From: a virus
Reading direction: 5' to 3' (one strand)
IMG/VR virus record: IMGVR_UViG_3300012929_000018
Location: 18,503 to 82,502 of that record
Length of the DNA: 64,000 nt
Positions 3,763 to 26,278 of this stretch are shown here, one piece after another (position 1 is the stretch's first letter; each line of letters opens with the position of its first letter). A program made the position numbers and the translations under genes. Below the pieces are notes generated by a model. The model was given only the letters and a program-made list of their open reading frames with translations. It was not told where the DNA came from and made no database searches.

Positions 3763-6359
3763 AGAAACAGCTTTATCCTGAGCAGGTAGCGCACGCGGGC
3801 CTGCTGGCAAAATCCATTGAGCGCAATAACCATGCTCTCGACGGAAGCTCAACCGGCTGCGGCAAGACCTTGATCGCTTGCTCATTGCTCGCGCAATACA
3901 AACGCCCCGCGCTGGTAGTCGGCATGAAAAGCACCCTGCCTATGTGGGAGCAGGAAGTCAGGCAAACTTTAATCGACGCGAAGGTGAAGCCAAAAGACTG
4001 GCCCAAAGTTGGCGTCATCAATTATGAGAAGCTTCGCCGCGGCAGCGCGCAGTGGGGCGATTGGATCCGCAAGGGGCAGTGGCAGTGGAACCTGCCGAAA
4101 GATACCATCATCGTGTGGGATGAATTCCAAAACTGTCAGGGAATGAACACCCTCAATTCCAAAATGATGATCGCAGCGAAACCCTACACGAATATCCTGC
4201 TATCCGCCACCGGCGCCGAGGATCCGACAGATATGCGTGCCAGCGGCTACATCCTTGGCCTGCATGGGTTACGCGACTATTGGCAGTGGTGCCGTAAAAA
4301 TGGGTGCAACCCGAACCAATGGGGCGGGCTCGAGTTTGAGGGCGGCGACGAGATAATGGACCGCATTCACAAATACATTTTCCCCAACCACGGCAGCCGC
4401 CTCACGCTCGAAGACATGAAGGCGCACTTCACCGAGACCCAAATTGTTACCACTCCGCTGAACTTCGGCGAGGAGATTGAACAGATTTACGAGGAGATGG
4501 CGAAGGAAATCGCCAAACTCGAAGAGATTATGACCAGCGACTCCGATCACCCGGCGGCGCAAGCCCTGATCGAGAAGCTGCGCGCGCGGCAGCGGGTGGA
4601 GTTTTTGAAGGTCCCGACCATGATCGAAATGGCTGGCGACCTAATCAAAGAGGGGCGCAGCGTGGTGATTTTCGTCAATTTCCAAGAATCTATCAATGCC
4701 ATTCGCGAGCGGTTCCCCGGCTCGTTGGAAATCAGTGGCCGCGTGACCGGGCAGCCACGGCAGGACGCGATCGCTGCGTTCCAAGAGAACCGGTGCAAGT
4801 TGCTCGTCTGCAATTCTCAGGCCGGGGGCGTCAGCCTAAGCCTACACGACTTGGATGGTAACCATCCACGCACCGCGATCATATCGCCCGACTGGAACTC
4901 CAAACGTATTCTACAAGTGCTGGGCCGCGTGCACCGCGCCGGAGGCAAGTCGAACACCCAGCAGCACGTTTTGTTCGCCGCTGGCACCGTCGAGGTTCAG
5001 GTGGAGAAAGCTGTGCGCCGCGGGATGGAGCGCATCGGAATCTTCAATGACGGGTTGAAAAACGATTACGGAGATGGAAATCCTGTTATTATTGCACCAC
5101 CGGCGCCGAAAATTATTATTCCGGTTCCGACCACAACCCCCAACATTGGCTTGTCAGAAAAAGTGATATGTTTTTCCGACAATTCTATTGCATTTAATCA
5201 GCCTTTACGCGACAATAAACCCACAATGACGGATGAGAAACCAGTGCCCGCGGAGTCTCTCGAAGAGCCAGCACACGCCGAGTTCAGCCCCTCAAGTCTC
5301 TCGATGTTCGAGAAGTGCCCCGGCTGGCGCAACCGAAACGAAACCACTCCCCAATCGGAAGCGGGCACCCGCATCCACAAGGCGTTAGAGAAGAACGATA
5401 TTGAGTCTCTACCGAATGACGAGGAGAAAGCTGTCGCCCAGTCATGCCAAGATTTTATGGATTCCCTCATCGCGGAGCGCGGAGTTCCAGACACAGACCA
5501 TCGCGAAGTTCGCCTCTATATCGACCTTGGCGCTGAGCTAAAAACTTTCGGAACCTGCGATCGACTTATGACGTGGGGCAAACTCGGTATCCTAACGGAC
5601 TACAAATCGGGCTACCGACTAGTCGCCGACGCCGAGGAGAATGCGCAGGGATGGTCTTACATCATCGGCACCTTCCAGCGGCCGGATATGGCTCACTTGG
5701 AAGAAGTCATCATTTACTTTCTTATTCCCAACCGCGACGAGATTTCGAGCGCAGTGTTCAAGCGCAGCCAACTCCCGGCGATGCAGCTTCGGTTGAACAC
5801 CATCGTTCGCCGCGCCATGGCCGACAACGAATCGCAATACAACCCGCAGCCTGAGTTATGCGAGTATTGCGCCAGACAGGAGACTTGCCCGGCTCTCGCG
5901 TTGAAGGCTCTCATGATTTCCAAGCACATTGCAGCAGGGCTGCCTGTGCCAGCAAACGCCAGTGTGTCGAAAGACCGTCCGGCGGACATTCCGCAGTTGC
6001 TCCGGCTCGCGCCTCTCATGGAAGCGTGGGCGACGGGCGTGCGCAAAGAGGCGCTCAGACTGCAGATGGAAGAAGGCGTAGACGTTCGTGGGTTCAAACG
6101 TATCGAACGCTCCAACCCTCGTTCCGTCAACTCTGTAATCGGCACATGGAAGGTTATCAAAAACAAAGGCGTCAGCCTTGAAGATTTTTTGGACGCTTGC
6201 GGCAGCGTAAGCATCCCCAGTTTAGAAGAACTTGTCGCGTCACTAGCGGTGCGCGGTCAAAAAGGACCTGCAGCCAAGCAGTTCATCAACGACCTGCGCA
6301 CCGCGGATATTCTCAATGAAGGTGGAAAATCGTTCTACCTGAAAGAGCAGAAAAAGTAA
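3759..6359 (+). CDS. SNF2-like helicase fused to a Cas4-like PD-(D/E)XK nuclease (DUF2800-like)
   Basis: Helicase motifs STGCGKT, IVWDEFQ, LLSATG, QVLGRVHRAG. C-terminal half has FSPSSL..FEKCPGW, GTRIH, GTCD, DYKSG and CEYC....CP (Fe-S cysteines). Confidence 0.85.
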   Translation: MKKQLYPEQVAHAGLLAKSIERNNHALDGSSTGCGKTLIACSLLAQYKRPALVVGMKSTLPMWEQEVRQTLIDAKVKPKDWPKVGVINYEKLRRGSAQWGDWIRKGQWQWNLPKDTIIVWDEFQNCQGMNTLNSKMMIAAKPYTNILLSATGAEDPTDMRASGYILGLHGLRDYWQWCRKNGCNPNQWGGLEFEGGDEIMDRIHKYIFPNHGSRLTLEDMKAHFTETQIVTTPLNFGEEIEQIYEEMAKEIAKLEEIMTSDSDHPAAQALIEKLRARQRVEFLKVPTMIEMAGDLIKEGRSVVIFVNFQESINAIRERFPGSLEISGRVTGQPRQDAIAAFQENRCKLLVCNSQAGGVSLSLHDLDGNHPRTAIISPDWNSKRILQVLGRVHRAGGKSNTQQHVLFAAGTVEVQVEKAVRRGMERIGIFNDGLKNDYGDGNPVIIAPPAPKIIIPVPTTTPNIGLSEKVICFSDNSIAFNQPLRDNKPTMTDEKPVPAESLEEPAHAEFSPSSLSMFEKCPGWRNRNETTPQSEAGTRIHKALEKNDIESLPNDEEKAVAQSCQDFMDSLIAERGVPDTDHREVRLYIDLGAELKTFGTCDRLMTWGKLGILTDYKSGYRLVADAEENAQGWSYIIGTFQRPDMAHLEEVIIYFLIPNRDEISSAVFKRSQLPAMQLRLNTIVRRAMADNESQYNPQPELCEYCARQETCPALALKALMISKHIAAGLPVPANASVSKDRPADIPQLLRLAPLMEAWATGVRKEALRLQMEEGVDVRGFKRIERSNPRSVNSVIGTWKVIKNKGVSLEDFLDACGSVSIPSLEELVASLAVRGQKGPAAKQFINDLRTADILNEGGKSFYLKEQKK
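5188..5216 (+). promoter_or_regulatory. Internal sigma70-like promoter in the helicase-nuclease linker
   Basis: TTGCAT-17 nt-GACAAT, ending 9 nt before in-frame ATG 5226. Preceded by the inverted repeat TTGTCAGAAAAA/TTTTTCCGACAA (5151-5182). Confidence 0.45.
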
Positions 6360-19603: not shown

Positions 19604-19886
19604 ACCCGTAACCCCGATCCTCGAATGCCCGGTTTGTCCGGCGACGTGGGATCTGGGAAAGGTAGGAGTTCGCGGGCTCGATTATCAAGTGCCGATGCAT
19701 GTCCGAGTTCAATTTCGGGCACCGGCGATTCTCTGCGCGGGCTCGCACAAGAAGCTTCCGCTAACCTTTTACGACGCCGCGCCGTTGTCTCATGGCGAGC
19801 CACTGGCCTAACCGCCGGTGCGTGAACTGAGACAAGTTGGCTCCCTACGTTGGAGAGCGACTTTCTGTCTCACTGGCGATTAAGGT

Positions 19887-19958
19887 GTGACCGTAGCTCA
19901 ATTGGCAGAGCCCTCGGTTGTGGACCTTGAGGTGCGAGTTCGATCCTCGTCGGTCACC
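19887..19958 (+). tRNA. tRNA-His(GUG), degenerate (possible pseudo-tRNA)
   Basis: GTGACCG/CGGTCAC acceptor, C73, TTGTGGA loop. Anticodon stem CTCGG/CCTTG has two mismatches; T instead of G at -1; followed by CCT rather than CCA. Confidence 0.7.
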
Positions 19959-19970
19959 CCTTAGTCGCTC

Positions 19971-20001
19971 ACCTTCGGGTTTTTATAGGAAAAAATTTTT
20001 T
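19971..20001. repeat. T-tract/A-tract motif, copy 1 of 3 (others 32862-32890, 36794-36825)
   Basis: ACCTTCGGGTTTTTATAGGAAAAAATTTTTT vs ACCTCGGTTTTTTGAGGGAAAAAATTTTT vs ACCTCGGGTTTTTTGGGAGCAAAAAATTTCT. Confidence 0.7.
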
Positions 20002-20102
20002 AACCTCCCCTCATCACCTACACACCTGCACGTGCGGGGGCCCGCGGGGGTAGGGGTGGGTCTGCTTCTGGGAGCAGGCATAAGCGCGCTCGCGTGATGC
20101 CT

Positions 20103-20115
20103 GCGCATAATGCGC
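20103..20115 (+). promoter_or_regulatory. GCGCATAATGCGC palindromic promoter/operator motif, copy 1 of 7
   Basis: Other copies at 20688, 20886, 22711, 32005, 33559, 36860. All are intergenic or at gene ends and lie upstream of a purine-rich RBS. Confidence 0.8.
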
Positions 20116-20128
20116 GGGAGATGGTCGA

Positions 20129-20671
20129 ATGAAAATCACACGAACAAGTCCATCGCTCAAACAATCGAACATCAATCACGTGTGCGAGAGCGCACGTATG
20201 CACGGTCGAACACGCTCGCCTCATTGGAGTTGGAACGCCGAAGCAGAAGTCAATTCCCTACGGGAAAACCGGCACGATTTCAGAATGCCGAAGGCATTAG
20301 ACCGGAAAGCCCAAGGCAAATGGGTGAACGAATACACGCCTAAGGTGCAGCCCTGCGACGGTGTAACCGTGACGCCTGTAAAGGGAAACAGGGTTGCATG
20401 GCTGAGTGAGGAACAAACTAAACGTTTCAAAATCACAATCACGAATGACGCAGGCGTTGAAGAACAGGCACGCATGAGCATGAAATTCACCACCTTAGCA
20501 ATTCTTACTTACGGAAAAGTAGTAGAATTTGTTCGCTGCCACCGCGGCGTAAACGTGCGTGACATGCGCACAGACACGCTCAGATCACCCGCGTATGTCA
20601 CCGCTGAAATTCGCCGCTTAATTCCGGTTAATGCGGAACAAGCGATTGAGCAGCTATTCGCGACTGAATAG
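20129..20671 (+). CDS. Hypothetical early protein
   Basis: Directly follows motif copy 1 and GGGAG; start may lie downstream. Confidence 0.55.
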   Translation: MKITRTSPSLKQSNINHVCESARMHGRTRSPHWSWNAEAEVNSLRENRHDFRMPKALDRKAQGKWVNEYTPKVQPCDGVTVTPVKGNRVAWLSEEQTKRFKITITNDAGVEEQARMSMKFTTLAILTYGKVVEFVRCHRGVNVRDMRTDTLRSPAYVTAEIRRLIPVNAEQAIEQLFATE

Positions 20672-20687
20672 CACGCACATCACGCTT

Positions 20688-20700
20688 GCGCATAATGCGT
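20688..20700 (+). promoter_or_regulatory. GCGCATAATGCG(T) motif copy 2
   Basis: One mismatch; followed by GAAGAAAG and ATG 20716. Confidence 0.75.
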
Positions 20701-20715
20701 GTGAAGAAAGTAACC

Positions 20716-20850
20716 ATGAAAAACAAATTATCTGAAATCCTGTTCGATCTGAGTGAGCGCCTGCCTAAATGCCTGAACGCATTAGCGTGGACGCTCGACC
20801 GTGTGAGCCGCGCTATGGTAGCGAATAGCGTTGACTCAATCGGACTTTGA
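20716..20850 (+). CDS. Small hypothetical protein (44 aa, MKNKLSEILFDLSERLPKC...)
   Basis: Manual translation; motif plus RBS upstream. Confidence 0.55.
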   Translation: MKNKLSEILFDLSERLPKCLNALAWTLDRVSRAMVANSVDSIGL

Positions 20851-20885
20851 CTGTCACACGCCTTCGAGCGCAGCGCGCTATGTGT

Positions 20886-20898
20886 GCGCATAATGCGC
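20886..20898 (+). promoter_or_regulatory. GCGCATAATGCGC motif copy 3
   Basis: Exact copy, immediately before structured RNA A. Confidence 0.8.
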
Positions 20899-21386
20899 TC
20901 GAAGGAAGTGACCGCCAGTCGGTTGCTCGGAAATGAGCGAAGCAGAGTAGCGAGTGAATGAAAGCGGGTAGTCGCATGAGTCGCCACAGCGTCAATCTCA
21001 TGTGTAAGCTGCGAATAGCTCGTGAGGGTAGCTACAAGCGTGTTCTAGTCCGGAAAATTAACCATCCGGTTTCGTAAGGGTGTTCAATGATGCTACACCC
21101 ACGGTGAGGCCCGAACAAACGGGTGCGTAGAAGCGAGTTGGCTCTCGTGGAACGCATCACGCAAAAGCCTGATCGTCGGATATTAAAAACCAAATTCAAC
21201 ACGCATACGAGTGACGCGACGTTATTCGTAGATGGCTGCGCGACGCAGCTATCAGCGTGCAGCCCTGTGGCCCTGCTACAATGTTCCAGAATACGCGTGA
21301 TGCGTAGGACGGCAGCATTTCAGGGACACTAGCCAGTGCATCTCACACGTGACGTGTGACGTGTTACAGGGTTGCAATCTGATACC
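20899..21386 (+). ncRNA. Large structured ncRNA candidate A (~490 nt)
   Basis: No credible ORF. More than 10 helices, including the 11-bp ACGCATCACGC/GCGTGATGCGT enclosing a three-way junction with two 10-bp hairpins. Confidence 0.7.
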
Positions 21387-21815
21387 ATGAGTGATTTAAC
21401 CATTCAAGCGAACGGTCAGGCTCTAACGCTCGGAAACTTCGGCGGGGTCACTAAACCCGACTTCCGAACGAAAAACGCGAAGGAGTATCTGTCCGCGCAT
21501 TTCGGTGTCACTGTAGTCAAAGGCATGAAAATGCCTGACGTGAAAGCGGCTGTCCTCGCGACGGGCGTTACGGAAGCGAATTTCAAACTCGCCCGTAAAA
21601 CCTACGACGGGAACAAGCAACAGTATCACGTCGAGTGCCGCAAAGTGACGGCGCTTCTCGCGGCTGACCCGAATTATCGGCAGTCCATTCGCAAGATGAA
21701 AACGGGTGCGGTTGTGACGTTCCGTAAAATCGGGGCCGTTGCTGCCAAGCAATCTGCCGCCGCCCGTATCGCGCAGTTGGAAGCGAAGCTCGCAGCGGCG
21801 GGCATCGCGGCCTAA
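21387..21815 (+). CDS. Basic Lys/Ala-rich protein (142 aa) between two structured RNAs
   Basis: Clean ORF, many K/R residues, C-terminal coiled-coil-like AAARIAQLEAKLAAA. Confidence 0.8.
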   Translation: MSDLTIQANGQALTLGNFGGVTKPDFRTKNAKEYLSAHFGVTVVKGMKMPDVKAAVLATGVTEANFKLARKTYDGNKQQYHVECRKVTALLAADPNYRQSIRKMKTGAVVTFRKIGAVAAKQSAAARIAQLEAKLAAAGIAA

Positions 21816-22326
21816 TCGCGTCGGCGCGACTTCGGAGTGTGAATGTCTGTGGGTGCGCAAGCGCCCACAGCAATTCGCTCTCACCTAAGGTGAACAGCTA
21901 GGCATACGCTATGAAAACAGTGCGGCTTTAGGGAACGATAGCGAAGAAAAGTGGCGAAGCGTAAATCGGGTTGGCCCGTAAAGCCTAACGATCAGGCGCG
22001 CGCAAGTCGCACCCCGCGACTAGGCCCCAAACGGCGAAAGCACGTTGCAACGTGCCCGCTGCGTTGGTCAGCGGCGGGTGTGCGGCGCATGTTGAGTGCT
22101 CAGTCAGGCTGGGTGGAAGTAGGCGCGTGAACATGACGCGCGCTGAGAAGCGGCGGGCCAAAAGCTCGCAAAATAGGCCCATGCTGCCGCGCGGTGGCAT
22201 GTGACGCACCCGGCCTGACTGCGCACAAGCGTAGTAGATGTGATTTCGGTTACAGCTAGTTCTTTGAATTACAACTAAGATTACGTTCTCACTGGCACGC
22301 TGGCTCTGCCTAAACCAGCACAATTT
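21816..22326 (+). ncRNA. Large structured ncRNA candidate B (~510 nt)
   Basis: More than 12 helices, including the 15-bp CAGTCAGGCTGGGTG/CACCCGGCCTGACTG closing a multibranch loop of four hairpins. GNRA loops (GCAA, GAGA). Confidence 0.75.
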
Positions 22327-22521
22327 ATGAACCATGCAATGACACCACGCGAAAACTATCGCCCTTATACGCCTGCGGAAATCCAGGCTATTCGTGCGGC
22401 CGGGCGCATCACGCGCGCCGCGCGATGGGACTGCGCCAACCTCGAACAAAGGATGGAAATGCACCCTGAATTGAACCCGAACAAGCGGTGGTTTGAGCAG
22501 AAGGCGTGGAAACTACTATGA
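22327..22521 (+). CDS. Hypothetical protein
   Basis: Packed small ORF. Confidence 0.55.
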   Translation: MNHAMTPRENYRPYTPAEIQAIRAAGRITRAARWDCANLEQRMEMHPELNPNKRWFEQKAWKLL

Positions 22522-22718
22522 CCATCGAAGTAAAACGAGACGGAAAGACGGTCTGCACGATCATCAAAGGCTCGGGCAGAATTAGCAGCGACAAGCTGAA
22601 ATTGCTCGCGATCAGATATAACGCGGGCCATTTAAGCACTTTCAACGATATGCGCGAGGTAGTTCGACAGGCGAAAGTCATTCGCTTGGAGAAAGCTCTC
22701 GCGGTAATGTGCGCATAA
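22518..22718 (+). CDS. Hypothetical protein
   Basis: Overlaps the previous stop; ends within motif copy 4. Confidence 0.55.
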   Translation: MTIEVKRDGKTVCTIIKGSGRISSDKLKLLAIRYNAGHLSTFNDMREVVRQAKVIRLEKALAVMCA

Positions 22719-22723
22719 TGCGC
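22711..22723 (+). promoter_or_regulatory. GCGCATAATGCGC motif copy 4
   Basis: Exact copy upstream of GAAAGGA RBS and ATG 22756. Confidence 0.8.
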
Positions 22724-22755
22724 GCGAAGCAGATAACCAACAACGAAAGGAAACC

Positions 22756-22947
22756 ATGAAACACACCATCACACTGACAAAGGACAAAGAGACGAAGAAC
22801 AAAATTCGTTTCTCGAACGAACCCACCGACGCGATTAGCGGAAGCTTATACATCGCGAAGGAACTCGTCGGCAACGTGAATGCGATTCAGTTCGCAATCG
22901 AGTTGCCCGAGGTTGCGGTGACTGCTCCGACTCCGGTCGAAGCGTAG
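22756..22947 (+). CDS. Hypothetical protein (KETKNKIRF...GSLYIAK)
   Basis: Strong RBS. Confidence 0.7.
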   Translation: MKHTITLTKDKETKNKIRFSNEPTDAISGSLYIAKELVGNVNAIQFAIELPEVAVTAPTPVEA

Positions 22948-22997
22948 TTGATACGCAGCGCCCCGTGTGATAACGTGGGCGTTGCAATCAGTTACGT

Positions 22998-23073
22998 TGT
23001 AAGGTAGCTCAGTTGGTAGAGCAGGCGCCTGTTAAGCGCCGCGTCGTAGGTTCGACTCCTACCCTTACAGCCA
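22998..23073 (+). tRNA. tRNA-Asn(GUU) with CCA
   Basis: Canonical cloverleaf: TGTAAGG/CCTTACA, GGCGC CTGTTAA GCGCC, GTAGG TTCGACT CCTAC, G73 CCA. Confidence 0.95.
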
Positions 23074-23077
23074 ACAC

Positions 23078-23148
23078 ACAGGGGGCGAAGGCAGTAGCGC
23101 GAACTCCAAATCCGCGTGTGATGAGTTCGATTCTCATACCCTGTGCCA
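23078..23148 (+). tRNA. tRNA-Trp(CCA) with truncated D-arm
   Basis: ACAGGG/CCCTGT acceptor, CTCCAAA loop, ATGAG TTCGATT CTCAT, G73 CCA. Only 14 nt between acceptor and anticodon stems. Confidence 0.7.
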
Positions 23149-23176
23149 CTTTTTGACTAGGTTGGTTGCGCAACAA

Positions 23177-23268
23177 TGACCTGCACCTTGCATCGCGGTA
23201 GCCGTTGCAGCGGTGGAACGAAGTAAGAGCGTTGTTGTCGATGGTCCGATTCCATCGCTGGTCACCCA
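23177..23268 (+). ncRNA. tRNA-like RNA with 8-bp acceptor, T-arm and CCA end
   Basis: TGACCTGC/GCTGGTCA, GATGG-TCCGATT-CCATC, C-CCA end. Oversized first arm and no canonical anticodon loop. Confidence 0.55.
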
Positions 23269-23272
23269 CTTT

Positions 23273-24432
23273 ATGAACGAGACAGACGAACGCCTGCAAA
23301 GGCAATGGGCGCAGATTGAGAGCAATCGACGCGCCGACAAGATCGTGCGCCGTCGTAAGATCGCGCAAGTCACGGGCGGCTGTGACCGCTGCCCGCCTCA
23401 CGCGAAGGAGAACGCGCGCCTCAAAGGGCGTAAGCCGCGCGAGGATAAGCACAAGAATCACCGCACGGTTAAGTGGAGTAGCCACCATTCCGTGCCTATT
23501 TACTAATTTATGAACAGAGGAAACAGACAGGCGGACATACAGTTCCGCGATATGCTGTGGCGTTACGACCCACGGTCAATCGAAAGCGATACACCCACGG
23601 CCGAGTGGACGTGTGCGCCCGAACCTAAGTGCGTTGTCGCACGTAGTTTGGGTGAAAGTAGAGTTGTGAACGCACGGGGCGTTCGCAGAGCAGCATGAGT
23701 TGGGAAACAATCGGGTGGCTATTGACGATACCGGGATGGTGCGTTATAGGCATCACAGCAATCATCAAACTATGCAAACCACAATAGAAACGCTCCCTAA
23801 GCGCCGCGGCGTTGTCGCGCGAGCTAACGGGATTACGGATAGCTACGGCAAGCAATATATTCGCATGAGCGATGGTAGCTTGCGCAAATTAAACGCAGTT
23901 ACTGAGCCGCAACAGCCGCTCGTTCTCGGTGGGTTCGAGGTATGAGTGAGATTCACACAGATGAGTGGAAGCATCGCCGTGACACGTTGGTCGGATTCGT
24001 GATTATGTGCAATAACAACAATTGCTCTAATCGCCCATTCGATGACGCGCGCAGCGTGCGACCTGTGATCACCTGTGAAAACGTGCTCGAAGCAATGCGC
24101 GAGCGCATGCCGGACATTACGGCAGCGCAGCGTGTGGATTTCGTGCATGTCGCGAAGGGATTCATACCAATCAAGTAGGAGACAAAACTATGGCAAATCG
24201 ACAGACAAGGTGGTTGCTCGCCCACGGGCGCGGCACCAAAAACGTGGTGGGCAGCAGCCCAGCGCGTGCAGAGCATATTGACCGCCCGCTATTTCATGGC
24301 GTGACGTGCAATACTGCGAACAAGAAAACCAAGCCGCGTGACTCACTCGGCAAGTTGCGGACGTTGAGCAGCAAGCGAGTGCTCGACAAGCGCATCACGG
24401 CTTACGCGGTCAATCCAATTTACGCATCATGA
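23273..24432 (+). other. Cluster of five small hypothetical ORFs (23273-23506, 23510-23698, 23772-23945, 23942-24178, 24190-24432)
   Basis: Tightly packed co-oriented ORFs; several are Arg/Lys-rich. Confidence 0.55.
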
Positions 24433-24459
24433 AGCCGCCGTTCTGGATTTTCTACCAAG

Positions 24460-25038
24460 TTATGATGGTAGTGATACTGGCGCTGTCGGCGCTGGTAGCT
24501 GTGCCGTTGTGGGCGGCGTTTGAGTTTGCGATGCTTCCTTGGCATCTTCACCGGATGCATCGGAGACAATCTCGCCCTCGATCACGACGGGAGTAGGTTC
24601 ATCGTCGGCGCTCATCGCCTCATTGATGTTGATGAGTGTCTGTGATACCACATCCTGAGTGTCGAGACCTGCGGCGCGCCGAGCAATTTTGTCAGCGAGT
24701 TCAGCTTCGCGGAAATTGCTCGGCGCCTTGGCCTTCATCAATTTCAGCGAATCATGGGCTAAGTTGAAAGCTACCTTGCGGTGGTTTTCACCTTTCTCCA
24801 ACCATTCATCGGCTTTCTTGGCAATGGCATTCTCAGCGGCCTTTTCAGCGGCTCGCGTTTGGATAGCCCCGATCATGCGTGATACGAGCGTCAATCGCTT
24901 GCGGTTCACCCGCCTGCGAATGGTGTTCGCCGATACGCCAAATCGGGCCGAAAGCTCCTGAATGTTAAGGCATTCGGCGGTGGCTGCATCTTGAATGGCG
25001 ACCCAAGGGATACCTTTGGTGGGCGGTCTCTTCTCCAT
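24460..25038 (-). CDS. HTH protein, probable terminase small subunit
   Basis: N-terminal HTH (IQELSARFGVSANTIRRR), helical oligomerisation-like middle (DKIARRAAGLD), acidic tail with VIEGEIV typical of TerS. Confidence 0.6.
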   Translation of the reverse strand: MEKRPPTKGIPWVAIQDAATAECLNIQELSARFGVSANTIRRRVNRKRLTLVSRMIGAIQTRAAEKAAENAIAKKADEWLEKGENHRKVAFNLAHDSLKLMKAKAPSNFREAELADKIARRAAGLDTQDVVSQTLININEAMSADDEPTPVVIEGEIVSDASGEDAKEASQTQTPPTTAQLPAPTAPVSLPS

Positions 25039-25066
25039 GTGTGACCGCAACCTTACGACAAACTTT

Positions 25067-25545
25067 ATGGATAAGCAAGACGAAACGGTAGATCGTTGCA
25101 CCCGCATACGCGCGCCATGGACAAAGTGGCGTTTGTGTGTCGGCGTGGAGACGAAATACATGCCGATCGTTATGGCCGGGCTCTCTAACGAGGGCGCGCT
25201 CAAGGTCGGCATGATTACAGCTTGCCAGAGCAAGCTTGAGGGCGGGATTATTGTTCTACGCCCTTTACACGGAGCAAATTGATGGACATAAATCAAACGC
25301 ACGACGCCATCCAGAAGGCGATGAGCGACGCTAGGGAAACTCCCGAATACAAGCAAGAAGGCGAGGAACTGAAAAAGTTTAACCCGCGGAAGCGCGGTGG
25401 CGCTGCGTATCCTAAACGCAGCGGCATGTCACGGCGCAAGCTACGAGCAAAACAACTCGCGCCGCCGATCACACAGGAGCGCACGAATGCGTTGCTCGAC
25501 GCTGCGCTGAAAGTTTGGAGTTTGAAGCATGGATACACAGACTAA
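25067..25545 (+). other. Two small hypothetical ORFs (25067-25282, 25282-25545)
   Basis: Coupled TGATG junction. Confidence 0.5.
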
Positions 25546-26278
25546 CGACAGACCCAAGATGCGGATAGACTTCCCATCGCAATACGCGTGGGAACAATAC
25601 CTTCGCGACCAGCCTGTGCCAGCATTACTCGGCTATCGTTCGATGCTAGAAGTGGCACTCGACGCGCCAACCCCGCCCACGCAGCTACGCCTGGATATGC
25701 GCACGCGCACAGGTAATGTGCCGCATCATGCCAGTGCTGATGTGGTGAAGTCGGATTACTTGTCGAATGTTATGTCACCCATCGGGTTACAGAAGGTCGT
25801 GCGTAAGGTGTGCTCGGTCATTAAGAAAAGCGGCGTCGAGTTCGATTCGATTGCATTCCGTGGATTCAGTGGAGCGTTGGTTGCGCCGCTGGTCGCCTGT
25901 CGATTGAAGAAAGGATTCCTCGCGGTGCGCAAGCACAAGGATAACGAGGATTGTCATTCGAGCTATCCTGTCGAGGGCGCAGTCAAAGCGCATTGCCATT
26001 ACATAATCATTGACGACATTATCAGCAGCGGCGCAACCGTCTGGAACATCGTTACCGAACTCAACACTTTCAAATATATTGATGTTTCCACTAACGGGAA
26101 CACCGACTACCAGATCTTCAAACGCAAGTGCGTGGGTGTGTTCCTTTACAACTCATGGGTGAGCGATAAGGGTAAGGGACACGGCTTCGACTTCGAGACG
26201 CGCGAGATTCATGCTGCCTACGGTGCTGACACCGAGGATTCATTTCATCTGCCTGTTTGGTCGTTCTCGGCAAAATAG
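25529..26278 (+). CDS. Type I phosphoribosyltransferase-domain protein
   Basis: PRPP-binding motif YIIIDDIISSGATV; upstream FDSIAFRGFSGALVA and AVRK. Confidence 0.85.
   Translation: MDTQTNDRPKMRIDFPSQYAWEQYLRDQPVPALLGYRSMLEVALDAPTPPTQLRLDMRTRTGNVPHHASADVVKSDYLSNVMSPIGLQKVVRKVCSVIKKSGVEFDSIAFRGFSGALVAPLVACRLKKGFLAVRKHKDNEDCHSSYPVEGAVKAHCHYIIIDDIISSGATVWNIVTELNTFKYIDVSTNGNTDYQIFKRKCVGVFLYNSWVSDKGKGHGFDFETREIHAAYGADTEDSFHLPVWSFSAK

Follow-up and report, generated by a model that had tools for sequence, protein, structure and literature searches.

Locus and source sequence

The stretch of DNA analyzed (the window; 64,000 nucleotides, nt) comprised bases 18503-82502 of the 82.5-kb IMG/VR virus record IMGVR_UViG_3300012929_000018, an uncultivated soil phage, and encoded a helicase, a DNA polymerase, a ligase, RIIA and other phage functions. 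The element under study is a + strand cassette made up of a copy of a short oriented motif, a folded block (block A), the gene of a 142-amino-acid (aa) basic protein (P0001) and another folded block (block B). An original prediction, made from the letters of the window, had placed here two folded blocks free of open reading frames (ORFs) on either side of the 142-aa ORF, and this layout was borne out: the blocks measured 488 and 511 nt, and the gene was conserved. Along the + strand, small ORFs each preceded by GCGCATAATGCG were followed by block A, the P0001 gene, block B, three small ORFs and tRNA-Asn (Table 1). Comparative sequence evidence shows that block A is truly a structured RNA: ~490 nt of the + strand, conserved, covarying and without an Rfam family. 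Its best-supported description is that of a new family of large structured RNA, which would form the 5′ part of the basic protein's mRNA and be inherited together with the gene.

tRNA genes were called by ARAGORN on both sides of the cassette (His at 19887-19960 upstream, Asn at 22998-23073 downstream), and the cassette therefore lies inside a tRNA island. The upstream tRNAs were His, Met and Pro, and tRNA-Asn was separated from the cassette by the three small ORFs. The cassette had been expected just upstream of a tRNA cluster; the nearness of tRNAs was correct, but the position was not, with tRNA-His upstream and tRNA-Asn downstream.

Metagenome contigs with the protein gene were L002 (92% identical protein), L003 (73%) and L004, the last being a near-identical, error-ridden copy of the window that was not used as an independent sequence. 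Data from public runs consisted of soil-metagenome DNA contigs, with X1 perhaps being the sample from which the phage came, and parts without cover in runs X2-X4 were not counted as evidence.

Consensus fold and covariation of block A

Block A was aligned across three metagenomic homologues (window, L002 and L003; 504 columns) and folded with RNAalifold. The consensus contained 143 pairs in 21 predicted helices, among them ~10 local hairpins or arms, and 23 of the pairs carried compensatory double changes. Standard pairs filled 97.9% of the 425 pair cells. Six slid controls gave 0-6 compensatory pairs and 27-44% pairing, and none of 500 column shuffles reached any of the observed measures. A more distant soil contig supplied another compensatory pair (21079 G>A with 21099 C>T).

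G-U pairs occupied 50 of the 425 pair cells and identified the + strand as the block A RNA; pairing was 97.9% on the + strand vs 86.1% on the − strand, in agreement with the earlier argument from G-U pairs. GNRA loops, which had been cited for the same strand, were represented by one GAAA loop (20930-20933), but this was absent from L002, and the recurring apical loops were instead CGA/UGA triloops, in which four hairpins ended.

Nucleotide identity of block A was 91.3% to L002 and 79.0% to L003, and identity at the third codon positions of the adjacent gene was well below this (65.5% and 50.0%, respectively). Invariant columns made up 72% of the unpaired junctions and 69% of the stems; the proposal that linkers are more conserved than stems was rejected on these figures (p 0.57). 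No conserved ORF was found in block A: stops occurred in all six frames in all three homologues, and the longest stop-free run was 95 codons.

Minimum free energy (MFE) folds of the single sequences gave moderate z scores of -3.0 for block A and -3.8 for block B, and no shuffle out of 100 folded as well. When 1647 genome windows of 200 nt were scanned with GC correction, the middle of block B ranked 1st, the start of block A 3rd and the 3′ half of block A 5th. Shuffle-based z scores of 300-nt windows across 21001-21750 ranged from -3.5 to -4.7.

Rfam searches returned no match to block A alone at E ≤ 10. Block B alone gave three matches at E 4.8-8.4, and GOLLD, ROOL, introns, RNase P and tmRNA were not among them. 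The whole window at gathering score yielded five tRNAs only, and 20600-23300 at E ≤ 10 yielded tRNA and two chance-level matches only. The proposed large non-coding RNA A was upheld as a conserved, covarying, + strand RNA without an Rfam family.

Linkage of block A to the basic protein gene

The order motif, block A, gene, block B was conserved in all three loci with DNA (window, L002 and L003), and in L002 and L003 the next gene was retained as well. The folded blocks had been described as bracketing a dedicated basic protein, and for block A the physical and evolutionary linkage to the gene agrees with this. The + strand interval from 20886 to the AUG at 21387 contained no terminator-like site, no sigma-70-like site and no further copy of the motif, so the gene is probably transcribed through block A. 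No motif copy was found between block A and the 64-aa gene (22327-22521) either, and for this reason the 64-aa gene probably shares a transcript with block A.

The frame ahead of the AUG of P0001 reads RVTGLQSDT. In four homologues the gene call begins too far upstream, and the over-extended N-termini read VTGLQSDT (P0005, 77% identical), VTGLQSDT (P0011, 46%), FTGLQSDT (P0012, 44%) and AGLQSD (P0017, 36%); the leader strand in these homologues (~25 last nt of block A) was deduced from the protein N-termini. Since the read-through residues match a stretch that is non-coding in the window, the 3′ strand of the leader appears to be conserved as nucleotide sequence where the protein has widely diverged. 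These observations argue for the RNA and the gene traveling together, by coupling rather than chance neighborhood.

The closing helix of domain 3 (helix 17) has a 3′ strand of 19 nt (21365-21383) that ends 4 nt before the AUG. Of its 17 pairs, 13 were invariant, 2 were changed on one side and 2 were broken in L003; none was compensatory. Translation control by block A is no more than plausible, as thermodynamic modeling did not make the start site an outlier.

Promoter-like motif

The cassette had been said to start right after a copy of a promoter-like motif, and an exact copy of GCGCATAATGCG does begin at 20886. Seven exact + strand copies were found in the window vs 0.59 expected, a count matched by none of 100 shuffles, and no minus-strand copy was found across the whole 82.5-kb genome. 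Copies of GCGCATAATGCGY, all on the + strand, lay at 20103, 20688, 20886, 22711, 32005, 33559 and 36860, with GYGAARGGA and then ATG downstream. A Shine-Dalgarno (SD)-like GAAGGA/AAAGGA and an ATG followed within ~15-40 nt at all copies except 20886, where block A comes in place of the SD-like sequence and ATG. Five copies were present in L002 and two in L003, in syntenic places, and both contigs have the copy at block A.

The motif contains a -10-like CATAAT. At block A it is enclosed by a 12-bp inverted repeat (Table 1), which L003 retains with one compensatory and one wobble change (by eye). Transcription of block A is presumed to start from the element at 20886 as a phage-specific promoter or start signal, and the seven copies on one strand suggest a regulon of early genes under a phage-specific promoter or operator. 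A phage RNA polymerase gene was not recognized with Pfam PF00940, PHROGs, Pfam or a PDB sequence search of a 2658-aa ORF, the PF00940 search being one without a working positive control.

The basic protein

P0001 contains 26 Ala, 15 Lys and 7 Arg in its 142 aa and has an isoelectric point (pI) of 10.1. Nine homologues were found at 54-92% identity, and a profile search of 1.84 billion representatives gave 55 proteins at E ≤ 1e-3, 18 of them at E ≤ 1e-10, all of 121-223 aa. The family is uniformly basic (pI 9.2-10.9, median 9.9, 63 sequences). Identity of the gene at codon positions 1/2/3 was 91/93/66% to L002 and 82/84/50% to L003, and by this codon pattern P0001 is under purifying selection.

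No consistent Pfam or PHROG family was found in the 42 family members scanned, and a PDB sequence profile search gave no match at E ≤ 10. Nothing usable for P0001 was obtained from the ESM Atlas, and the structure model was poor (predicted template modeling score, pTM, 0.33). No reverse-transcriptase or homing-endonuclease domain was detected in P0001, Pfam showing nothing above noise.

Block B, inter-block pairing and coding-region structure

The consensus fold of the block B 5′ part contained 22 pairs, 5 of them with compensatory double changes in the three homologues. No T-run followed the 5′ hairpin, and no intrinsic terminator was found by scan on the + strand in 19800-23400. The 3′ part contained 18 pairs, 1 of them compensatory, and was 85% identical to L002 and 66% to L003. 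The middle was 53% identical to L002 with 88 gap columns. In L003 it measured only ~120 nt and included a module shared with L002 and absent from the window. In soil run X4, one contig joined 21883 to 22236 by 12 other letters, and another joined 21883 to 22209, with 150 other letters in place of 21884-22208. The length of the middle thus ranged from 12 nt to ~435 nt among relatives. The helix closing it (22096-22115/22207-22226) persisted in L002 with one G-C to C-G swap.

As the middle can be replaced, shortened or cut to 12 nt, block B is, on the sequences compared, a plastic, hairpin-rich intercistronic spacer and not a second conserved RNA gene, and the proposed large non-coding RNA B was not sustained: only its two ends are conserved. 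The expectation that both flanks would stay conserved and covary in homologues of the protein held for block A but failed for block B beyond its ends. This spacer seems to gain and lose modules. The hairpin-rich spacers of this phage lineage appear evolutionarily fluid, which is useful to know when phage genomes are mined for real RNA genes. A multi-hairpin module of ~70 nt was common to L002 (5470-5545) and L003 (1386-1455) and not in the window.

Pairing between the two blocks, and a single RNA with the ORF looped out of it, had also been suggested. Full-length MFE folds contained 34, 32 and 5 A-B pairs in the three homologues, at differing places. Complementary A-B 7-mers common to all three numbered 12, one of them with a compensatory change. 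The consensus fold of the coding region had a positive covariation term (+3.8), and ~37 of its 122 pairs had a broken or gapped cell; on these grounds coding-region structure was rejected as a global feature, although 300-nt windows over the coding sequence folded well (z about -4). With A-B pairs that differ among the homologues and a coding region without consistent structure, neither conserved inter-block pairing nor the looped-out ORF was supported. No run of at least 6 codons identical in all three homologues was found in the coding region.

Within the P0001 coding sequence, a GAAA-loop hairpin at 21521-21534 (GGCATGAAAATGCC) was conserved in the three homologues with one wobble change. 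The surrounding 32-nt run shows hardly any change, synonymous sites included.

Table 1. Positions of the cassette, its parts and the following gene in the window.
Feature	Position	Strand	Remarks
12-bp inverted repeat enclosing the motif	20861-20905	+	arms 20861-20872/20894-20905, 100% complementary (repeat search)
Oriented element GCGCATAATGCGC (5-bp stem, TAA loop)	20886-20898	+	presumed promoter/start signal; copy before block A
Block A	20899-21386	+	488 nt without credible ORF
Block A domain 1	20941-21033	+	consensus fold
Block A domain 2	21038-21204	+	consensus fold
Block A, two hairpins	21206-21230, 21234-21250	+	consensus fold
Block A domain 3	21251-21383	+	closing helix 21251-21269/21365-21383
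Gene of 142-aa basic protein P0001	21387-21815	+	no known family
Block B	21816-22326	+	511 nt; spacer without conserved ORF
Block B conserved 5′ part	21816-21883	+	small hairpin and ~20-bp hairpin directly behind the stop codon
Block B hypervariable middle	21884-22235	+	stable helices closed by inverted repeat 22096-22115/22207-22226
Block B conserved 3′ part	22236-22326	+	three small hairpins up to the start codon of the next gene
Next small gene, 64 aa	22327-22521	+	syntenic in L002 and L003 (ORF list, homologous sequence)

Distant relative and homologue searches

A distant homologue of the protein (P0029, 26% identical) was found in L006, a complete 79-kb IMG/VR phage (IMGVR_UViG_3300047471_000466, G001) whose DNA polymerase is 52-55% identical to that of the window. 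The flanks of the P0029 gene were ORF-poor and very strongly folded, and the 1 kb behind the gene (4472-5470) had a z score of -7.5, with 300-nt windows at -5 to -9 across several kb. Across 3300-8400 of L006, most 300-nt windows had z scores of -3 to -9, coding parts included, with values of about -1 to +0.5 over 4951-5400. By eye, the same region contained many inverted copies of GCAATGC/GCATTGC-type words. No credible match to the models of block A domains 1 and 2 was obtained in L006, and the RNA family is therefore narrower than the protein family or too diverged to be seen there.

Searches of IMG/VR with protein patterns gave no locus for the close family, none for one distant subgroup and one (L006) for another subgroup; two DNA patterns from block A gave no match each. 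GTDB genome contigs gave no match by protein patterns or by DNA pattern. Among GenBank phages, blastn returned only tRNA-Asn matches, and tblastn with P0001 and P0015 returned none. A bacterial contig (L005) with one short peptide in common was dropped.

A 17-mer from the 3′ strand of the leader matched two IMG/VR contigs, L007 and L008, and both matches were read as chance and dropped. L008 looked like coding sequence by eye. In L007, an unrelated IMG/VR fragment with a minus-strand tRNA array, the 17-mer lies in antisense in a ~160-nt gap (4131-4289) between tRNA-Asn and tRNA-Phe; it is probably there by chance, or part of an uncalled odd tRNA.

Interpretation and alternatives

About an even chance is given to the reading that block A and the protein are a functional couple, in which the leader is the binding target of the protein and governs its expression. 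An early transcript would start at the oriented GCGCATAATGCGC element at 20886 and have block A as its 5′ part. The same transcript would carry the basic protein gene, with a start codon that abuts the last helix of the RNA. Lying within the protein's own mRNA, the leader would most likely be what the protein binds, giving an autoregulated RNA-protein pair. Block B would be an intercistronic spacer with the ~20-bp hairpin after the stop codon, the three small hairpins and, between them, a dispensable insert of stable helices; its hairpins would probably be mRNA-end or processing signals. The coupled reading draws on the covariation and sequence constraint of block A, the one-stranded motif ahead of it, the shared gene order, the retained 3′ strand of the leader, the basic character of the whole protein family and the strongly folded flanks of the P0029 gene.

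Several results weigh against this coupling. Just three full sequences were available, and covariation was confined to local hairpins and arms, where all 23 compensatory pairs sit. Long-range helices 4, 5, 9, 17 and 18 had no compensatory change, 45 of their 50 columns being invariant. Fold or domain evidence for RNA binding by the protein was absent, with nothing above noise in Pfam, PHROGs or PDB sequences. Covariance models of domains 1 and 2 gave no credible match beside P0029 or genome-wide in its phage; the best scored 11.6 bits (E 0.5), no better than chance matches in the window. Because the RNA polymerase gene was not identified, the promoter is only inferred. Masking of the start site was compared with that of 22 other genes by ensemble accessibility and was rejected as an outlier: the unpaired probability of -22..-4 was 0.24-0.32 vs a mean of 0.46 (standard deviation 0.20), with 2 to 6 of the 22 genes as low or lower, depending on the homologue, and that of -20..+12 was 0.34-0.45 vs a mean of 0.51.

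The unremarkable masking of the start site weakens a purely cis role and favors, to that extent, block A being a stand-alone, trans-acting ornate RNA like GOLLD and ROOL, with a task of its own (for example in assembly, as a cage or decoy, or tRNA-related) and with the gene merely downstream or released by processing. This is held to be rather unlikely. Block A has the size (~490 nt), the many helices and the conserved unpaired junctions (72% invariant) for such a role, and it sits inside a phage tRNA island, near which GOLLD and ROOL, as phage/prophage RNAs, are often found according to part of bioRxiv 10.1101/2024.12.08.627333. However, GOLLD, ROOL and all other Rfam models were unmatched at E ≤ 10, block A runs right up to the start codon, the two being separated by neither a promoter nor a terminator, and the co-conservation of its 3′ strand with the gene extends to distant homologues. 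A new kind of phage ribonucleoprotein, dedicated and composed of this RNA and protein, is likewise unlikely; it would be an early particle of the ~490-nt RNA and the basic protein, encoded as one tRNA-island unit and acting in trans. Such a particle might target host or phage RNA metabolism, for example tRNA handling or the neutralizing of RNA-directed defense, and would be like RNase P or tmRNA-SmpB in layout and not in ancestry. The arrangement of structured RNA on both sides of a small ORF, with a variable peripheral region in block B, recalls a group I/II intron or other mobile RNA element with a looped ORF. Beyond this layout nothing speaks for it: Rfam introns, ribozymes, RNase P and tmRNA were unmatched at E ≤ 10 and ARAGORN called no tmRNA, no split host gene was seen, the cassette is bordered by a promoter-like motif and separate small ORFs, neither a reverse-transcriptase nor a homing-endonuclease domain was detected in the protein, and A-B pairing was inconsistent across homologues. 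Such an element is extremely improbable.

Both blocks might instead be strings of stable hairpins by which early mRNA ends are marked, protected or processed, in the manner of T7 RNase III sites. The confinement of all 23 block A compensatory pairs to local hairpins and arms, with none in long-range helices, would be expected of such strings, as would the simple conserved hairpins at the ends of block B around a dispensable middle, and the early region of the related phage is full of very stable hairpins. Processing signals are normally single hairpins at gene junctions, however, and a single long conserved hairpin without a T-run at a cistron boundary was found only at the 5′ end of block B. 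Of the 21 predicted helices of block A, ~10 are local hairpins or arms, and no gene separates them; the sequence between the hairpins is conserved like the stems and far above synonymous sites, and the strands of the proposed long-range helices are 90% invariant. Hairpin strings explain block B well and block A poorly, and as an account of both they are quite unlikely. It is very unlikely that the element acts as DNA, for instance as a site of replication or packaging or as a group of extruded hairpin promoters of the N4 virion RNA polymerase type. The 5-bp stem and 3-nt loop of the motif recall the N4 early promoter hairpin centered at -11, as described in part of PMC4496689, four block A hairpins end in similar CGA/UGA triloops, and the motif copy at block A lies within a 12-bp inverted repeat. 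Against a DNA element, the G-U pairs, 50 among the 425 pair cells, would turn into A-C mismatches if the opposite strand were read, the 7-mer CGYGACG was not enriched genome-wide (31 found vs 39 expected), the repeat search found no repeats or iterons in the cassette, and no T7- or N4-type RNA polymerase was found, with the limit on the PF00940 search given above.

Neighboring sequences

Directly behind tRNA-Asn, at 23075-23270, two tRNA-like elements were seen by eye: one at ~23075-23145, with a loop resembling that of a CCA anticodon, and a longer one; neither was called by ARAGORN or Rfam. Another strongly folded stretch lay at 24451-25650 (300-nt windows, z -4 to -7.4, + strand), overlapping a minus-strand 298-aa ORF (24460-25356) with weak helix-turn-helix matches. 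This stretch could be another structured RNA region or a hairpin cluster.

Comparison with known systems

Autoregulated mRNA leaders of RNA-binding proteins include those of ribosomal proteins and of T4 gene 32. Like these, block A would be a structured leader at the 5′ end of an mRNA for a small basic protein, its last helix reaching the translation start region; unlike them, it is several times larger (~490 nt), and its masking of the start site is no outlier. The early polycistronic mRNA of T7 carries RNase III processing hairpins, which the ends of block B resemble in being conserved, stable, free of a T-run and located where cistrons of an early transcript meet. Block A differs from such hairpins in its ~490 nt, its 21 predicted helices and conserved junctions, and in enclosing no cistron. 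Particles of a large RNA and a small basic protein are known in bacterial RNase P RNA with RnpA and in tmRNA with SmpB. The cassette shares with them, by analogy only, a structured RNA in the 350-500-nt range, a basic protein in the ~120-160-aa range and a tRNA-rich context; unlike RNase P RNA and tmRNA, block A was unmatched in Rfam at E ≤ 10, and P0001 was similar to no solved chain.

The early promoters of N4 are hairpins with a 3-nt loop centered at -11, according to part of PMC4496689. The motif is likewise a short inverted repeat with a 3-nt loop, strictly oriented and placed before early genes; unlike in N4, a virion RNA polymerase was not recognized in this genome, and the motif contains the -10-like CATAAT. 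In the portion of an IMG/VR structured-RNA survey cited here (PMC10690425), the candidate RNAs measure just 29-151 nt. Literature searches found no account of a comparable RNA-protein cassette, which is not proof of its absence from print.

GOLLD and ROOL, described in part of bioRxiv 10.1101/2024.12.08.627333 as phage/prophage RNAs of unknown function often near tRNA islands, are like block A in being large, many-helix phage RNAs in or beside a tRNA island. They are unlike it in that their Rfam models gave block A no match, and in that block A abuts and is co-conserved with a protein gene, GOLLD and ROOL being without a known protein partner. Large, highly structured RNAs without a known family are rare, and GOLLD and ROOL are themselves still without a function or a protein partner. 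Block A and P0001 would be a concrete pair in which binding and a role early in infection can be tested: a covariation-supported RNA of GOLLD/ROOL-like size tied to one specific, unannotated family of basic proteins.

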